DNA from: Escherichia phage vB_EcoP-ZQ2
Sequence record: NC_070874.1
DNA length: 64,000 nucleotides
Strand: one strand, 5' to 3'
Below, piece after piece: positions 6,475 through 63,532 of this stretch. Positions within the stretch are counted from its first letter, which is position 1. Every line of letters begins with the position of its first letter. A program made the position numbers and the translations under genes. The notes beneath the pieces were generated by a model. That model searched no databases. It saw only the letters and a program-made list of their open reading frames with translations, and was not told the origin of the DNA.

Positions 6475-8826
6475 ATGAACGAAATGTTCTCACAAGGTGG
6501 TAAAGGCTCCACTGGTATACTTACCAATAAGCAAGCCATTGCCCGTAAGTTTGGTGTTAAGCAGAATGAAGTAGTCTACTTTGCTGTAGGTGTAGACTTA
6601 GGTGGTTACAAAGTAATCTATGATAAGACTACCCAGCGTGCTTACTCATTGCCCGTACTTCCTTCAGGAACCACTGCTGTAAGTCTTAGCAACCAGGCAG
6701 TCCTGGTTCATTCAGCAGGTACAGTTGATTTAGGGGAACTGGCTGCTACATGCAGGGAGTTCGTGAACTTGTCTGACACGTTTGCTACTGGTTTGGTGGT
6801 AAATACTAGAAATGAATTACTATTTCATAATGGTATAGGTTATTCATATTTAGGTTCTCTACCTGTAACTATTACCGCAGGAACTAACCCTGTTGGCAAT
6901 GCAGACTGGAAGCCACAAACTGATCCTAATTTGAGAGAAGATTTATCTTCACCTGACCTAAATAAGGGAGCTTCTCTTGTTACTTTCCACTACTTAGGCG
7001 ATACGGTGGAAAGCACATTAGGTAACATTCAATCAGTACCTTTTGAGCATTTCGGCGGCGGAACCTCAAAAACTGGGGAAGAAAACACCGCTGCTTTGAA
7101 AGCGGCTATCTCTTCACAGTTTAAGCACATTTGGTTTAATAACGGTCCCTATACTTTCTCTGGGGATACTAATTTTACTGGAATCAATGGTAAAATTTTT
7201 GAGTCTAATACAAACGCTGCTTTTGTTTTCTCAGGTTTATTTTTTAACTTCAAATCTCCAGTGGACACCGAGTTCAGGGGGATCACGTTCAGTGCTCCTC
7301 CTACCAATACGGTGTTAAACTCCGTGACTCTTAGTAACTTCACTAATATTAAATTTACTAAGTGTAAGTTTCTTGGTTTTGGGGGAGACACTACAAATAC
7401 CGCAGGTAGTGCAGCACTCATACTTTATGCTGGTGATTCCGAGACGGCCCAGTATGCTGCTGGTAGTTCTACTGGTGCTGTTCTTGATGGGTGCTATTTT
7501 GACGGCCTTCGCGACCGTTTGTGTAACTTCGCGGTTAGGGTCTACACAGAATTTACTGTGCCGACTGCATCTATTGCAACTAATTCCAATAATAAAATCA
7601 TTAACTGTGATTTTGTCGGGCATAACTGGAACGCAGTTGAAATAGCCGGGCCTAGTACCCACAGCAACATTGTTAGTAACTGTTCAGCTACTAACCCAGG
7701 ACTGTGCCCATTTGACCTGGATAAAGGGACGCACGATAACATCGTAGAAAATATTACGATACGTAATTTGAAAGGAGACCTTGGCGTAAGTGGGTTCACC
7801 CGCGCGTCGGCTGTCAACATTCAGGGTGCCACTGCTGACACCTACTTTGCATACAATAACACCGTTAGAAATGTAACATGTGTCACAACTAAGGATAATA
7901 TCGACGCGTATAACGCCACCGGTTTTGGTTCCGGGTTCGCTGCTGTTAGTCTGGCATACTGCTACAACAACTTTGTAGATAATGTCACTATGACATGTAA
8001 CGGTGGTGTTCCGACCAAACCATCAAATGGCACAATGGCATTCTGTCATCTCACGTTTGAATCTATATCCGGGTGTACCGTTAATCGGGTGTCTACGGTT
8101 AACGCGTCTCATGGCATATTAATGACTTCATTCAAAAGTCAATCTATGTCGGCACTTAACGAGCCAAATCATTTTTCCACGTTCCGTAACTCTGGGGCCA
8201 ACCTAGAAGGTGAAATATTTTACGGGTATGCTACCGCAGCGGGTAGTCCATTGAAGATTATCCTCAATGACATAGACCTAACTACATCTGGTGCTCAAAG
8301 TAACCTTACGTACAACGGACACAAATATGCAATTGTGTACCGCACAGCTGGAAGCTCTGTTAACTATTTAAGGATTGAGGAAAGCCGCATCGGATTAGCT
8401 ACTGATTCTAATCTCTGGTTTGCTATGTGCACAGGGCCGCAAATTGGTTTGCGAGAGGTGCAAATCCACGATGGCAACGGTACAGCGAATGTTAATAGTC
8501 GTTTTATGGAATCCAATGGTTTGTCATTAATAACAAATATTGCTATCGATAACGTATATGGGGATCTAGAGAGAAAACCTATCCAGATACAGACGGCGTT
8601 AGCCGGGCTGACGGGTGGTACGTTTAAACTTGTTGGTGGGATTTCGGATAGTGGGTTACCACAATCTAGACCTGTTACGTTATTCGCCAATTCAGCAACC
8701 ACATTCCCATCAGCTGCTCAGTTTGATACGAATATAATCTTACGTCGTACATCGGCTACTACGGGCCAAGCGTGGGGATGGATTAGCACAGGAACAGCGT
8801 GGGCAGCGTTAGGCTCACTGACGTAG
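6475..8826 (+). CDS. tailspike / receptor-binding protein, probable right-handed beta-helix
   Basis: 783 aa; repetitive N/T/G/V-rich beta-solenoid-like sequence (NIVSNC, NIVENITIRN); position after first fiber gene. Confidence 0.5.
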   Translation: MNEMFSQGGKGSTGILTNKQAIARKFGVKQNEVVYFAVGVDLGGYKVIYDKTTQRAYSLPVLPSGTTAVSLSNQAVLVHSAGTVDLGELAATCREFVNLSDTFATGLVVNTRNELLFHNGIGYSYLGSLPVTITAGTNPVGNADWKPQTDPNLREDLSSPDLNKGASLVTFHYLGDTVESTLGNIQSVPFEHFGGGTSKTGEENTAALKAAISSQFKHIWFNNGPYTFSGDTNFTGINGKIFESNTNAAFVFSGLFFNFKSPVDTEFRGITFSAPPTNTVLNSVTLSNFTNIKFTKCKFLGFGGDTTNTAGSAALILYAGDSETAQYAAGSSTGAVLDGCYFDGLRDRLCNFAVRVYTEFTVPTASIATNSNNKIINCDFVGHNWNAVEIAGPSTHSNIVSNCSATNPGLCPFDLDKGTHDNIVENITIRNLKGDLGVSGFTRASAVNIQGATADTYFAYNNTVRNVTCVTTKDNIDAYNATGFGSGFAAVSLAYCYNNFVDNVTMTCNGGVPTKPSNGTMAFCHLTFESISGCTVNRVSTVNASHGILMTSFKSQSMSALNEPNHFSTFRNSGANLEGEIFYGYATAAGSPLKIILNDIDLTTSGAQSNLTYNGHKYAIVYRTAGSSVNYLRIEESRIGLATDSNLWFAMCTGPQIGLREVQIHDGNGTANVNSRFMESNGLSLITNIAIDNVYGDLERKPIQIQTALAGLTGGTFKLVGGISDSGLPQSRPVTLFANSATTFPSAAQFDTNIILRRTSATTGQAWGWISTGTAWAALGSLT

Positions 8827-56886: not shown

Positions 56887-57183
56887 TTACTCTGCTTTAC
56901 TGCTCGTGTGAGACACGTTGTATTGGTTACCACTGCCAACGTTAACGATTGTAGTCTGTGATTGCCCTTTATTAGACAGTGACCAAATCAGTGCTACTGC
57001 CCAAAATACTAGTGACCAGCCCAATACGATATTAAGCACACCAATACCCCATTTAGAGGCATGTCCTCGTGCAAAAGCAATGATAGTAGGGATAAGGTAT
57101 ACAGCTAATATGAATAACAGTACAAGGATTGCTGCTAAAGATTCCATGATGGTTCCTATGTGGGGTTGAGTTAGTTTCTTCAC
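56887..57183 (-). CDS. superinfection immunity protein (Imm-like membrane protein)
   Basis: 98 aa; ...YLIPTIIAFARGHASKWGIGVLNIVLGWSLVFWAVALIWSL... matches the Imm-family pattern. Confidence 0.65.
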   Translation of the reverse strand: MKKLTQPHIGTIMESLAAILVLLFILAVYLIPTIIAFARGHASKWGIGVLNIVLGWSLVFWAVALIWSLSNKGQSQTTIVNVGSGNQYNVSHTSSKAE

Positions 57184-57439: not shown

Positions 57440-57946
57440 TTATTTACTGCTTCTTGCAGCTACTGGTTTGTTTTCCTGGTTCTGATACTTGCCATTGTAA
57501 TTAGCAGGTTCTTGAACCAGATGAAATAATACTTGAGCTATCCCAGCACCAGCCGGGATATGTAATTTCTTACGACCATGATAGACCAGTTCAAGAGTCA
57601 AATACCCTTTCCATCCTGGTTCTATTACGGTATTGAATACTGATAATGCACGCCTTGCCCATGTAGACTTGTCGTGAACGATAGCTACACAGGAAGGGGA
57701 CATGTTAAACTTCTCAATTGCTGAAGCCAATGTGAACTTACCGAGATGTCGTGATACTTGATTTCCATCAACGACCTTCACCATTGGAATCAACCCAAAT
57801 AAGCGATAGAAGGTAATATCTTGTTTGATGCGAATATCATAACCAGCTTCACCCAATCCATAGCTTACACCATGCTCGGATATCTTACGGTCTGGGACAT
57901 CCAACAACTGAGATGAACGATATAGAGAATTACCATTAACAACCAT
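57440..57946 (-). CDS. dCTP deaminase (dUTPase-fold)
   Basis: GYDIR, EPGWKGYLTLEL and AGIAQVLF motifs characteristic of the dCTP deaminase/dUTPase family. Confidence 0.7.
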   Translation of the reverse strand: MVVNGNSLYRSSQLLDVPDRKISEHGVSYGLGEAGYDIRIKQDITFYRLFGLIPMVKVVDGNQVSRHLGKFTLASAIEKFNMSPSCVAIVHDKSTWARRALSVFNTVIEPGWKGYLTLELVYHGRKKLHIPAGAGIAQVLFHLVQEPANYNGKYQNQENKPVAARSSK

Positions 57947-59154
57947 TATTTCATTCCTTTAGGGATATGAACTACCTCCCCAAAAGGTACGGTAGCATTG
58001 GGATTATTCAGAACACACCAGATGATAGGGATATCAAATGGCAATTCTTCCATTGGACGAACATACATATCGGAGAATATGATTGCAGCGGTTGGCTTAT
58101 TCTTAATAATCCAATCGCGTACTGGTTCAAGGTTTGTACCACCACGACCGGTAATCTTAATCTCTTCGAATGTATCTTCTTCAGTGATGTCTATCTCTTC
58201 CTGGATAATATCGTCGAAGGTAATTAGGGACATCTTCTTAGGATTGAACTGGCTCTTAACATAGGCAACCTCTGAGTTAAAACGTAGAGAGTCAGCACTA
58301 CTAATAGAACCAGATACATCCTCAAAGTAGGCTAAGTGACGTAGACGTCCTTCATCATCTTCCAGTGAAGGTAGATAGATGTCAGTGTAACGACGGTTAG
58401 GTCTGGCCCACGTATAGTGAGTGTCATCAATGTCGGTAAAGAAGTTCATCAGAACTTCCTGCCATGGAACCACTGGTTTAAGGAATTGGGTAATAACCTC
58501 TTCCATACGACCAGCACCCTTACCAGGCATCTGTCCACCAGCCATCTTCTGGCTCTGCATTGCACGTACTACGTTGTTGACGACAGCACCCTGGGACTGC
58601 CCCGAAGTGGGGGATTTCATGTCGCCAGCAAGACCTGCTCCAGCACCCCCCGATGGCTTCTGCCTTTTCTGAGGGTTCTTCATCAGGTCATCGTAGATGT
58701 CTTCTTCGACCCATCCTTTATATTGAGGGTCTTTACAAATACCTTCATTGATACCAGTGAACTTGTAACCATCTTCCTCTAGCTGAAGGTTAATAAAGTG
58801 GTCACATGCCTGGTTCCAGACTTCCGGGTCACGGCTACCACGACGGATGTCGTGTAGATATGCCACATGCCATAGTTCGTGCATTAATACTGTTTCTCTT
58901 GCATCTGGACACATCCAGATAAAGAAGTCTGGGTTGAAGTGAAGTTCTACCCCATCAGTACATGCAGTGGGACAATCCTCACGTTTCCATGAGAATTTAA
59001 GACTACACAGTAATGAACCAAAGAACGCAGCAGACTTGCCTAGGAAAGCCTGAGCCTGAATACGGTCATACTCACGCATGAGTTGTTCATCACTAAGTGT
59101 GTGCTGAGGAAATTGGTTCATATTGTGATTATCCATGAATGTAACGAGAGACAT
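57946..59154 (-). CDS. vWA-domain protein with N-terminal HExxH metallopeptidase-like motif
   Basis: HELWH motif; MIDAS-like DVSGSIS; 402 aa; coupled to AAA ATPase gene. Confidence 0.65.
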   Translation of the reverse strand: MSLVTFMDNHNMNQFPQHTLSDEQLMREYDRIQAQAFLGKSAAFFGSLLCSLKFSWKREDCPTACTDGVELHFNPDFFIWMCPDARETVLMHELWHVAYLHDIRRGSRDPEVWNQACDHFINLQLEEDGYKFTGINEGICKDPQYKGWVEEDIYDDLMKNPQKRQKPSGGAGAGLAGDMKSPTSGQSQGAVVNNVVRAMQSQKMAGGQMPGKGAGRMEEVITQFLKPVVPWQEVLMNFFTDIDDTHYTWARPNRRYTDIYLPSLEDDEGRLRHLAYFEDVSGSISSADSLRFNSEVAYVKSQFNPKKMSLITFDDIIQEEIDITEEDTFEEIKITGRGGTNLEPVRDWIIKNKPTAAIIFSDMYVRPMEELPFDIPIIWCVLNNPNATVPFGEVVHIPKGMK

Positions 59155-60181
59155 TAGCAGCAGCCTTACGCCACTCAGGAGTAGCCTGAATTTCTGGTAA
59201 TGCTCTGCCTACTGTGCGGAAGTACAGAATCTTATGGGTGAACGTTTTAAAGCGTTCAATGTACTGAAGAACATCAACAAAGTTCTCTTCAGTAGTTTTG
59301 TTAGCCAGGTGGTTAACGGTAGCCCAGCACAGGTTGTTATCTTCCGGTAGTGCACAGCCCAGTGGGTCTTTGACTACCTTCTCAATCGTAATGATACGAT
59401 TATATACCTGGGTAAACTGAATAAATTCTGTAGCTTTACCAGCAGTAACGTGACCTGCATAGTAGATAGAATCTTCATCAGGCAGAGCACCTTCCGGCTG
59501 GTTCTTGAGGTCTTTATTAACAAAGTCCCAGGTACGAGGGCAACAGAACGTTTTGTTCTTATGAGCTGGGTCGAAGTCATGCAGATAGCCTGGATTAGCA
59601 TGTAAGAATGCAACCAGACGTTCATCCCAATGTTGAGGAATCATTACGTCTTCAACAAAGATGTCGAAGTTAAGTTCCATTTCAAAGTGAACCACACGAG
59701 ACTGCATTGCAGTACCTAATGGGTTAACAATGGCACGGTCAGTAGCTTTGTTACCAGCACAAACAATCATCACATTAGGATGAAGTTTTTTCTGTCCAGT
59801 CATACGATCCAGAATCAGTTTGTATGCAGCAGCTACTACTTCTTTCTTAGCGGAGTTGAATTCGTCAAGGAATAAAATCCACCCGTTATATCCTTCTGGT
59901 ACTTCATCTCCCTCAATAGGGAATAAGTCAGCGAATGGAATAAACTCTGCACGGTCACCATTACGAAATGGTAAGCCAGAAAGGTCTTCCGGGGCAGAAG
60001 TAGACAGACGATGGTCTATCAGCTTCATACCAAATTCTTCTGCAATAGAACGAATGATTGCAGACTTACCCATGCCAGGTGATGAAGTCAGGAACGGTAC
60101 GTTACCTGCTTTCAGGGCACGGACAATAAAGTTACGAGCTTGACGTGAATTACATACGGTCAAGGAGTCGATGCTTGCCAT
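59129..60181 (-). CDS. MoxR-type AAA+ ATPase
   Basis: Walker A SPGMGKSAI, Walker B ILFLDEFN, 350 aa. Confidence 0.7.
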   Translation of the reverse strand: MASIDSLTVCNSRQARNFIVRALKAGNVPFLTSSPGMGKSAIIRSIAEEFGMKLIDHRLSTSAPEDLSGLPFRNGDRAEFIPFADLFPIEGDEVPEGYNGWILFLDEFNSAKKEVVAAAYKLILDRMTGQKKLHPNVMIVCAGNKATDRAIVNPLGTAMQSRVVHFEMELNFDIFVEDVMIPQHWDERLVAFLHANPGYLHDFDPAHKNKTFCCPRTWDFVNKDLKNQPEGALPDEDSIYYAGHVTAGKATEFIQFTQVYNRIITIEKVVKDPLGCALPEDNNLCWATVNHLANKTTEENFVDVLQYIERFKTFTHKILYFRTVGRALPEIQATPEWRKAAANVSRYIHG

Positions 60182-60215: not shown

Positions 60216-60545
60216 TTAAGATTTAGTGCAGGGGTACGCCTTGTGTACTGAGTACACAACAATTTGGGATGTATTCTTCAATTTGAGGATTGCAGAATCA
60301 TAAATAACTACTTTGGCAATCTTAGGCAGAATGACTGAATATTTAATACCTTCAGGAACACAGTTATCTGTGCTCTCGATGTAAGAGATCATACTGCCCA
60401 TGAAGAATCCTTGTCCGAATGCATCACGAGTGTCATCCAGGTAAGCCTGAGCACCTTCCAGAATTGGTTCTGGTTCAATTGCTTGTGCATTTGGAACCAA
60501 AGCTATCAGTGCAGCTACTGCAATACCTTTAAGTAAAGTTTTCAT
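60216..60545 (-). CDS. secreted/periplasmic protein with signal peptide
   Basis: N-terminal MKTLLKGIAVAALIALVPNAQA. Confidence 0.45.
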   Translation of the reverse strand: MKTLLKGIAVAALIALVPNAQAIEPEPILEGAQAYLDDTRDAFGQGFFMGSMISYIESTDNCVPEGIKYSVILPKIAKVVIYDSAILKLKNTSQIVVYSVHKAYPCTKS

Positions 60546-62438: not shown

Positions 62439-63532
62439 AGAGAACTCTTGCCCCAGTACCTGAGACAGGATGAAGCCCAGCAAGTCACTCTTAGCAATGT
62501 CAGATAGAATCTGATTGTACTGACGACGCAGGTCATTACCGTAGTTAGGATGACATCTAAAACCATTAGTTAAACGAGTCGTTAGCTCGCCCTTACCTTC
62601 CATGATTAACATGGAAGCCATACGTAGCATCTGCTTCTTTACGAGCAAGCATTGCCTCCTCAAGTGTGTCATACGTACCCAGACCAATCTGTTTACGATT
62701 GACTGTGATGTGTGCCTGGAATCTACCAGAAGGCAATATTCTTACACCATTCACTTTGCTTGATGTATTACGTGATAAACCCATATTCATCTGGTTCTGT
62801 CTACTGGTTACATTTCTCAGATTAGACCAACGGTTGTCGTTTCTAATGTGATTGATGTGATCCACCTGGTTAGGTGTTTCCCCTGTTTCCATTATCCAGA
62901 TTATTCGATGCAGTAAGTACTCTTTACGACCCAGACTAACAGATAAATAGCCTTCTTTGTGAGGATACCCCACAATTGTTCCGGCTAATCCACTAGCAGA
63001 GTCGAAACGATGAGTTACTAGCCCACTTTCTCTGTCATACCTTAAAACCTTCTTCAAAGATTCTCGGGTAATGGTATCCAAGTCTTTTATCAGGTTCTTA
63101 CAGGTAGGGCATAGGTGGCCTATTGGACTCTTTTTAGCATCATAGAAGTTGCAAACAAACTCATTAGAGCATTGCTTACAACTACAGATAGCTGTGTACT
63201 TACCAGTTTTACGTAATATTTGGGAGTTATCTAACATATGGATTCCTTAGTAATTTTGCATACAATTTCAGATTGTATCCTAACCAAGGAAGTAAGTCTC
63301 CGGTTTTCACCGGAGTATCGGACTATATCATCACCCACTAATCAGTGGGGCAAGGCGCTTGGGTGGTCACTTGACTCACCTACTCTACTCACATACGAAA
63401 TGTTTTCGATAGTCTCTGAACCTTCCCTCATGGAGGGCTTGGCTGCTGATTGGCATATCCATAGGACTTAGCTTTCCAGCAATTCACCTTGTTTTCGACA
63501 CGGATTACTCCGTGAAGGATCATTTATGTTTA
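62439..63532 (-). mobile_element. group I intron with HNH homing endonuclease ORF, inserted in the RNA polymerase gene (boundaries approximate)
   Basis: on minus strand in order: P2-like GNRA hairpin (63499..63514), P element GAATTGCTGGAAAGC (63471..63486), Q CCAATCAGCAGCC (63441..63453), R GGTTCAGAGACTA (63407..63422), P8 hairpin (63334..63349), S GATATAGTCC (63320..63329), P9 hairpin (63298..63315), then HNH ORF. Confidence 0.7.
62593..63237 (-). CDS. intron-encoded HNH homing endonuclease with N-terminal CxxC zinc-finger-like motifs
   Basis: ...YLSVSLGRKEYLLHRIIWIMETGETPNQVDHINHIRNDNRWSNLRNVTSRQNQMN...; CSCKQC and CPTC at N-terminus. Confidence 0.75.
   Translation of the reverse strand: MLDNSQILRKTGKYTAICSCKQCSNEFVCNFYDAKKSPIGHLCPTCKNLIKDLDTITRESLKKVLRYDRESGLVTHRFDSASGLAGTIVGYPHKEGYLSVSLGRKEYLLHRIIWIMETGETPNQVDHINHIRNDNRWSNLRNVTSRQNQMNMGLSRNTSSKVNGVRILPSGRFQAHITVNRKQIGLGTYDTLEEAMLARKEADATYGFHVNHGR

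Follow-up and report, generated by a model that had tools for sequence, protein, structure and literature searches.

The window considered here, a 64,000-nucleotide stretch of Escherichia phage vB_EcoP-ZQ2 (NC_070874.1), contains on its minus strand two consecutive genes, one encoding a MoxR-like, AAA_5-related AAA+ ATPase (59129..60181, 350 aa) and the other a protein in which a zincin-like peptidase domain is joined to a von Willebrand factor A (vWA) domain (57946..59121, 391 aa from its conserved start). Both open reading frames (ORFs), which an earlier note on this DNA had recognized as neighbours on the same strand, are real, the second being called in its longest form as 402 aa (57946..59154, minus strand), and the residues of the vWA protein are numbered throughout in this 402-aa frame. 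The DNA of the region is 92-95% identical (about 94%) to some 54 deposited Gamaleyavirus genomes (G7C/N4-like, Schitoviridae), such as IME11, PD205, St11Ph5 and Bp4, and the vWA protein has 61% identity with gp25 of phage N4 over 95% of the query. The order gp24-gp25-dCTP deaminase (gp26) is identical in N4, IME11 and the window, where the deaminase gene, the gp26 orthologue, lies at 57440..57946 on the minus strand (Pfam DCD, 7.2e-16). The sequences of the two genes identify them as orthologues, in a Gamaleyavirus, of N4 gp24 (AAA+ ATPase) and gp25 (vWFA protein). Their finding is a re-identification of an annotated and previously discussed pair, whose members were identified in 2009 as an AAA ATPase and a vWFA protein, with no function assigned (PMC2784036), and in 2014 counted in the set of 14 core genes that N4-like phages share (PMC4193335).

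The earlier note considered the two genes to be translationally coupled through a 26-nt overlap, a claim that is not borne out in this form, given that this overlap needs the first ATG of the longest ORF (59154), which is ATA in IME11. The second ATG (59136) is ACG in IME11, and contig L002, with 77% identity in the vWA protein, retains the third ATG alone, 3 nt past the ATPase stop. The conserved start is the ATG at 59121, which yields the 391-aa protein, agrees with RefSeq IME11 and with most gene calls, and leaves a spacer of 7 nt after the ATPase stop. N4 shares with the window the orthologous proteins, the gene order and the middle-gene block, and differs in its gp24-gp25 spacer, which is 167 nt in N4 vs 7 nt in the window (or an overlap, if the non-conserved ATG is used). 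Overlap coupling is, in the sequences compared, no conserved trait of the gp24/gp25 family. The ATPase and vWA genes are tightly packed within one transcription unit, since the spacer between them is short (with no length fixed across relatives), no terminator-like site was seen on the minus strand from 61155 to 56800, and the vWA stop and the dCTP deaminase start share 1 nt in the TAATG at 57946. This block belongs to the middle class, with functions in replication and nucleotide metabolism, and not to an early-gene block as had been supposed, given that N4 gp24 and gp25 are middle genes (PMC4193335).

The catalytic motif set of the ATPase (K39/S40, D106/E107, N144 and R162) is intact and invariant in 25 homologues that are 48-88% identical, the sample used for the conservation of this protein. 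The Walker A motif, SSPGMGKS (residues 33-40; 60062..60085, on the minus strand, as are all the motifs of both proteins), has P35, G38, K39 and S40 invariant, and the Walker B motif, LFLDEF (residues 103-108; 59858..59875), has D106 and E107 invariant. Sensor 1 is formed by CAGN (residues 141-144; 59750..59761), with A142, G143 and N144 invariant, while MQSR (residues 159-162; 59696..59707), with Q160, S161 and R162 invariant, is the putative arginine finger, judged by where it lies with respect to sensor 1. Conservation in the protein peaks in an insert between strand 2 and Walker B (residues 56-88, DHRLSTSAPEDLSGLP...F.PF...FP; 59918..60016), yet its confidence in the structural model, given as the predicted local distance difference test (pLDDT), is only about 50. 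This insert occupies the helix-2-insert position of MoxR-class AAA+ proteins, and is a putative pore or partner-docking element.

In Pfam, only the generic AAA family (PF00004) passes for this protein, with 29.1 bits vs a cut-off of 21.2, and no NCBIfam match was found for it. Its nearest solved folds in the fold search are the AAA modules of dynein and midasin, together with the MoxR proteins CbbQ and NorQ. Given that the AAA_5 match stays below the gathering score, the name "MoxR-type" used in the earlier note rests on these fold neighbours, on the vWA partner and on the database names of the homologues, and not on a curated family threshold. Among the defence-system models of PADLOC, the only match is a 14.7-bit one to DolB for the ATPase, with none for its partner.

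Not every relative has an unbroken ATPase gene. In phage U1G (L020, 2229..4163), and also in PW8 and Vibrio phage VCO139, it is split by an HNH homing-endonuclease gene with a "phage intron" annotation, the N-terminal piece having 106 aa and ending at the Walker B aspartate, while the copy in the window is uninterrupted. The vWA gene is annotated in two pieces in U1G and Bp4, which could reflect frameshifts or sequencing errors.

The vWA protein belongs to two Pfam families in N-to-C order, both above their gathering scores, namely DUF2201_N (PF13203, "putative metallopeptidase domain"; 2.3e-57, 195.1 bits vs a cut-off of 23.2, residues 28-264) and DUF2201 (PF09967, "VWA-like domain"; 1.4e-33, 116.1 bits vs a cut-off of 26.4, residues 274-397). 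Both of the motifs that had been noticed in this protein were found in their places. The HExxH zinc-peptidase motif, HELWH (residues 92-96; 58867..58881), lies on a predicted helix (83-98) and is the sole HExxH across both proteins, where 0.018 would be expected from composition. The predicted secondary structure of the N-terminal domain follows a zincin-like order, with strands at 53-73, the helix at 83-98 that bears HELWH, and a helix at 110-127 that bears D118. A third metal ligand may be provided by H101 (HExxHxxxxH; 58852..58854) or, alternatively, by D118 in an ACD motif (58801..58803). The C-terminal domain has the Rossmann-like vWA fold, and its metal ion-dependent adhesion site (MIDAS) is complete, being composed of the DxSxS motif DVSGS (residues 279-283; 58306..58320), T340 in a GGT loop (58135..58137) and D362 in an FSD motif (58069..58071). 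Between the two domains lies a conserved unstructured linker (residues 245-269, W.RPNRRY.D.YLPS; 58348..58422), with a pLDDT below 50. Another linker, rich in Gly, Ser and Pro, runs through residues ~160-185. The conserved linker and the ATPase insert at residues 56-88, both conserved and both of low pLDDT in the models, may become ordered only in the complex.

The fold matches of the vWA domain include the MIDAS domains of NorD and midasin, and PDB 9qh8 is among the fold-search matches that bear on a vWA partnership of the CbbQ/NorQ type. The top Foldseek match in PDB is the vWA domain of CLCA1 (E 3e-4). The CLCA proteins are eukaryotic HExxH self-cleaving metalloproteases fused to a vWA domain, and resemble the vWA protein in that a single chain has the HExxH protease followed by a MIDAS-bearing vWA. 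They differ in being secreted eukaryotic proteins without an AAA+ partner, and the likeness is one of domain layout only. The earlier note assigned the domains correctly, and the family models that it had proposed as a check (AAA_5/CbbQ, VWA and peptidase clans) gave a mixed answer, in which the vWA-like and metallopeptidase DUFs were recovered, AAA_5 fell short of its threshold, and the isolated N-terminal domain had no secondary match to a Pfam peptidase clan.

Many deposited records of the vWA protein carry another name, "HNH endonuclease", which is the label of PHROG 1314 and is inherited from it by RefSeq N4 gp25 and by many genomes annotated with pharokka. This is a misannotation. No HNH family was matched in Pfam up to E 0.01, the only matches being DUF2201_N and DUF2201, while HNH_3 was recovered at 1.1e-15 for a genuine HNH gene of the same window, as a control; as far as its domains go, the HNH identity is refuted, and its probability is practically nil. 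The label has probably spread from homing endonucleases inserted beside or inside these genes in relatives.

The two proteins might also be read as a Co or Mg chelatase-type pair, similar to CobS/CobT or BchI/BchD, as found in some marine phages. This candidate is very improbable and was rejected, given that there are no Pfam matches to CobS, CobT or Mg-chelatase, that NCBIfam was empty, and that the partner is a DUF2201_N/DUF2201 protein with a peptidase motif. In addition, the part of the IME11 genome that was inspected has no gene annotated as a CobN/BchH-type partner.

The conservation of the vWA protein was followed at two depths. In the close set of 25 homologues (48-88% identical), H92, E93, H96 and D118 are invariant, as are the MIDAS residues D279/S281/S283/T340/D362. 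The earlier note had named the absence of HExxH from orthologues as the result that would overturn its reading, and for the close orthologues this did not come about, the motif being present in 25/25 close homologues and lost in about 6% of the divergent full-length ones. This second set was drawn from 21,204 family members at E<=1e-3 among 1.84 billion cluster representatives, of which the best 150, mutually less than 50% identical, were aligned. There, H92 is kept in 145/148 representatives, E93 in 139/148 and H96 in 143/148, which places H92 and H96, together with H101 and D118, at 95% or more and E93 at 94%. Position 101 is H in 141 and D in 6 of 148, while D118 is kept in 147/149, and the two representatives with N at this position both lack HExxH. 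In the linker, R254 is conserved in 91%, R255 in 95% and P262 in 93%. The MIDAS is the most constant element, with D279, S281 and S283 in 151/151, T340 in 149/150 and D362 in 150/150.

A degenerate HExxH is found in about nine full-length members (~6%), which have HQVWH, EELWH, KVLWH, HILWH, HGLWR, HLLWH, KALWS, HQLTT or HSLYQ in its place. These nine members are unclustered and their nearest relatives mostly retain the motif, and the losses look recurrent, since they are scattered among HExxH-bearing relatives. In the one case in which the neighbouring ATPase was compared, that of P0316, HExxH is degenerate and the MIDAS is kept, and the ATPase is 47% identical to that of the window, with its motifs intact. 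Proteolysis is therefore not indispensable, and the gene pair can evidently work without peptidase chemistry, whereas the MIDAS is never dispensed with. The indispensable part is, to all appearances, the pair formed by the ATPase and the MIDAS, the peptidase chemistry being usually kept, as it is here, and repeatedly lost.

The vWA homologues are themselves open to a second kind of selfish element, given that P0087, a metagenomic homologue of 700 aa, bears an intein (Pfam PF14890). P0249, a representative of 701 aa, matches in two stretches and may be another intein case.

Searches with tblastn recovered 693 phage records for the vWA partner and 813 for the ATPase, with a mirrored distribution. 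Both genes are present in Schitoviridae, in Rak2-like jumbo phages, in PA5oct, in Vequintavirinae, in Thermus phage phiFa and in a Planktothrix phage. In each of the contexts examined, namely jumbo phage WPEC3, a Vequintavirus, phiFa and the Planktothrix phage, an AAA+/MoxR ATPase gene is adjacent to the vWA gene or a few genes off. The vWA partner was also found in 107 plasmid records, and the ATPase gene stands directly upstream of it or one gene away on a Burkholderia conjugative plasmid, where the cassette adjoins type IV secretion system genes, and likewise on pREL1, a linear Rhodococcus plasmid, and on pSYSA of Synechocystis. The two proteins from pSYSA show homology with those of the window (E 2e-32 and 2e-20), and the pair retains HExxH, the conserved Asp and the MIDAS. 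The plasmid pairs composed of DUF2201_N+DUF2201 and MoxR proteins (pSYSA, pREL1 and pBVIE02) resemble the pair in the window in the homology of both proteins, in gene order (often with 4-nt overlaps) and in the retention of HExxH, the conserved D and the MIDAS. They differ in having an identity of only about 25-35% and in residing on plasmids rather than in a lytic phage, and they are equally uncharacterised. The cassette is, from this distribution, an old, co-inherited two-gene unit of mobile elements.

A pattern scan of genome contigs for cellular homologues used patterns that were overly specific to phages: of the 10 loci retrieved, 9 are at least 37% identical, and 5 lie on contigs of N4-like size (~69-75 kb) binned into metagenome-assembled genomes. 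Pfam searches of the genes flanking the cassettes on the plasmids and in the Planktothrix phage recovered no informative domain. In the Planktothrix phage, Pag-Yong1 (L019), a gene annotated as the anti-CRISPR AcrVA2 (7034..8074) is located one gene downstream of the vWA homologue, and Pfam neither supported nor contradicted this label.

The same architecture, a MoxR protein with a metallopeptidase-vWA protein, was described in group 2.2 jumbo phages by Iyer et al. 2021, who proposed a virion-assembly chaperone with peptidolytic processing and cited a precedent in Acidianus two-tailed virus (PMC7824862). The function suggested in the earlier note, i.e., a chaperone or maturation pair that may remodel a host complex or process a phage protein, is a reasonable guess, and is no more specific than this published proposal (PMC7824862). 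Applied to the N4-like pair, the proposal would have the two proteins fold or assemble structural proteins while the peptidase trims them, and the flanking of the WPEC3 pair by annotated virion structural genes is in its favour. The jumbo-phage pair has the same two-gene architecture as that of the window, with homologues that are 24-26% identical over about 91% of the query, and differs in lineage and genomic neighbourhood; the virion-assembly role suits the N4-like context poorly. The N4-like pair is found in a middle block with dCTP deaminase, ThyX, rIIA/B and replication genes, and not in the late structural block, and homologous cassettes occur on plasmids, which build no virions; even in WPEC3, the pair is within 3 genes of thymidylate synthase and DprA. 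A purely virion-assembly role is disfavoured by the middle-gene timing and by the presence on plasmids, and is considered rather unlikely.

The same neighbourhood keeps alive another role, in which the pair would mature or activate an enzyme of nucleotide or DNA metabolism, either by inserting a cofactor or by relieving an inhibition, the role classically ascribed to MoxR-vWA systems such as NorQD, CbbQO, CoxDE and the chelatases. N4 and IME11 both preserve the succession of ATPase, vWA protein and dCTP deaminase, which in IME11 is followed after a few genes by ThyX, and in the gene table of a roseophage deoxycytidylate deaminase and thymidylate synthase follow the gp24/gp25 homologues after a few ORFs (PMC2784036). 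In WPEC3, a jumbo phage of unrelated lineage, thymidylate synthase likewise lies 3 genes downstream, the vWA and dCTP deaminase genes of the window overlap at their stop and start codons, and the solved folds closest to the ATPase include CbbQ and NorQ. On the other hand, conserved gene order counts for little in a phage genome that is compact, the plasmid cassettes lack such neighbours, and the conserved peptidase domain is left unexplained. dCTP deaminase and ThyX are not known to require an inserted metal centre. Enzyme maturation, a role sustained by the synteny with dCTP deaminase, ThyX and thymidylate synthase, thus has a low probability.

The reading preferred here, with a probability of roughly 0.55, is that the cassette would be an ATP-driven, MIDAS-targeted machine for the remodelling and clipping of an unspecified client. 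It builds on the domains present, on catalytic motifs that are intact, on the behaviour of the pair as a cassette and on the conservation hierarchy, in which the MIDAS ranks above the peptidase, and every working step is modelled on characterised MoxR-vWA systems (midasin, CbbQO, NorQD and RavA-ViaA). The gp24-type MoxR-class AAA+ ATPase would build a ring onto which the gp25-type protein would dock as an adaptor. The MIDAS of the vWA domain, loaded with Mg2+, would then seize an acidic residue of the client, ATP hydrolysis would pull on or remodel this client, and the fused N-terminal zincin-like domain, through its HExxH, might cut either the client or gp25 itself. The cassette would be expressed together with the middle-class genes of replication and nucleotide metabolism.

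An ATPase that acts through a MIDAS/vWA partner is present in CbbQ-CbbO and NorQ-NorD, and these systems share with RavA-ViaA and midasin (Rea1/Mdn1) a MoxR-class AAA+ ring working by way of a MIDAS-bearing vWA partner. The pair in the window is no member of their families at the sequence level, and these systems also differ in having partners without a peptidase domain and clients (Rubisco, NO reductase and pre-60S factors) that are absent here. In midasin and other systems, MoxR ATPases work through vWA partners (PMC7159879). The client of the cassette is more likely to be a bacterial or general mobile-element protein than a part of the virion, because homologous cassettes occur in several unrelated phage lineages and on plasmids.

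Several points weigh against this machine. At the level of function, the literature searched on the gp24/gp25 family yielded no experimental work, but only genome descriptions and one comparative-genomics proposal, and no functional data on the pair were found in the CRISPRi-ART paper. The host or mobile-element nature of the client is a conjecture from distribution, and the recurrent loss of HExxH means that proteolysis cannot be the universal output. For the peptidase domain, no match to a solved peptidase fold was seen, the top matches listed in both fold searches being all vWA domains; the sequence and profile searches of PDB gave nothing significant; and the third zinc ligand has two conserved candidates, H101 or D118. 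For the ATPase, the Pfam AAA_5 match is under the gathering score (20.0 vs 22 bits).

Other genes lie around the pair. The gene immediately upstream of the ATPase (60216..60545, minus strand) encodes a protein of 109 aa that has a signal peptide and belongs to PHROG 11132, of unknown function. In phage 24-32N it is labelled "tai4 protein" (type VI secretion system amidase immunity), the sole support being a sub-threshold Pfam match to Rap1a (E 0.074). In the same transcription unit, a 98-aa membrane protein (56887..57183, minus strand) matches Pfam Imm_superinfect at 1.8e-16 and is a superinfection immunity protein similar to T4 Imm. A free-standing homing-endonuclease gene of 214 aa (62593..63237, minus strand; HNH_3 1.1e-15 and AP2 1.4e-4) separates the gene for an Ig-like decoration protein from the end of the RNAP2 gene. 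Since the corresponding interval of IME11 spans only about 440 nt, with two tiny ORFs, the gene looks like a strain-specific insertion.

A broader and rather doubtful idea is that the cassette is a mobile-element-wide split "AAA+ protease with MIDAS adaptor" that seizes one conserved bacterial protein via an acidic residue, in order to extract or cut it. If this were true, the target could be, for example, a defence, nucleoid or replication factor, and the idea would explain both the core status of the pair in N4-like phages and its recurrence in jumbo phages, rV5-like phages and plasmids. The lineages that lack HExxH would then neutralise the same target by ATP-driven extraction alone.

For other work on these genomes, the corrected start codon, the warning on the "HNH endonuclease" label, and the finding that the MIDAS is always retained whereas the peptidase motif has repeatedly been lost may be of use. 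All N4-like phages have only very few genes in common, gp24 and gp25 being two of them, and the discovery of their client would fill a real gap in the biology of N4, and could reveal a general step of host takeover or maturation in mobile elements.

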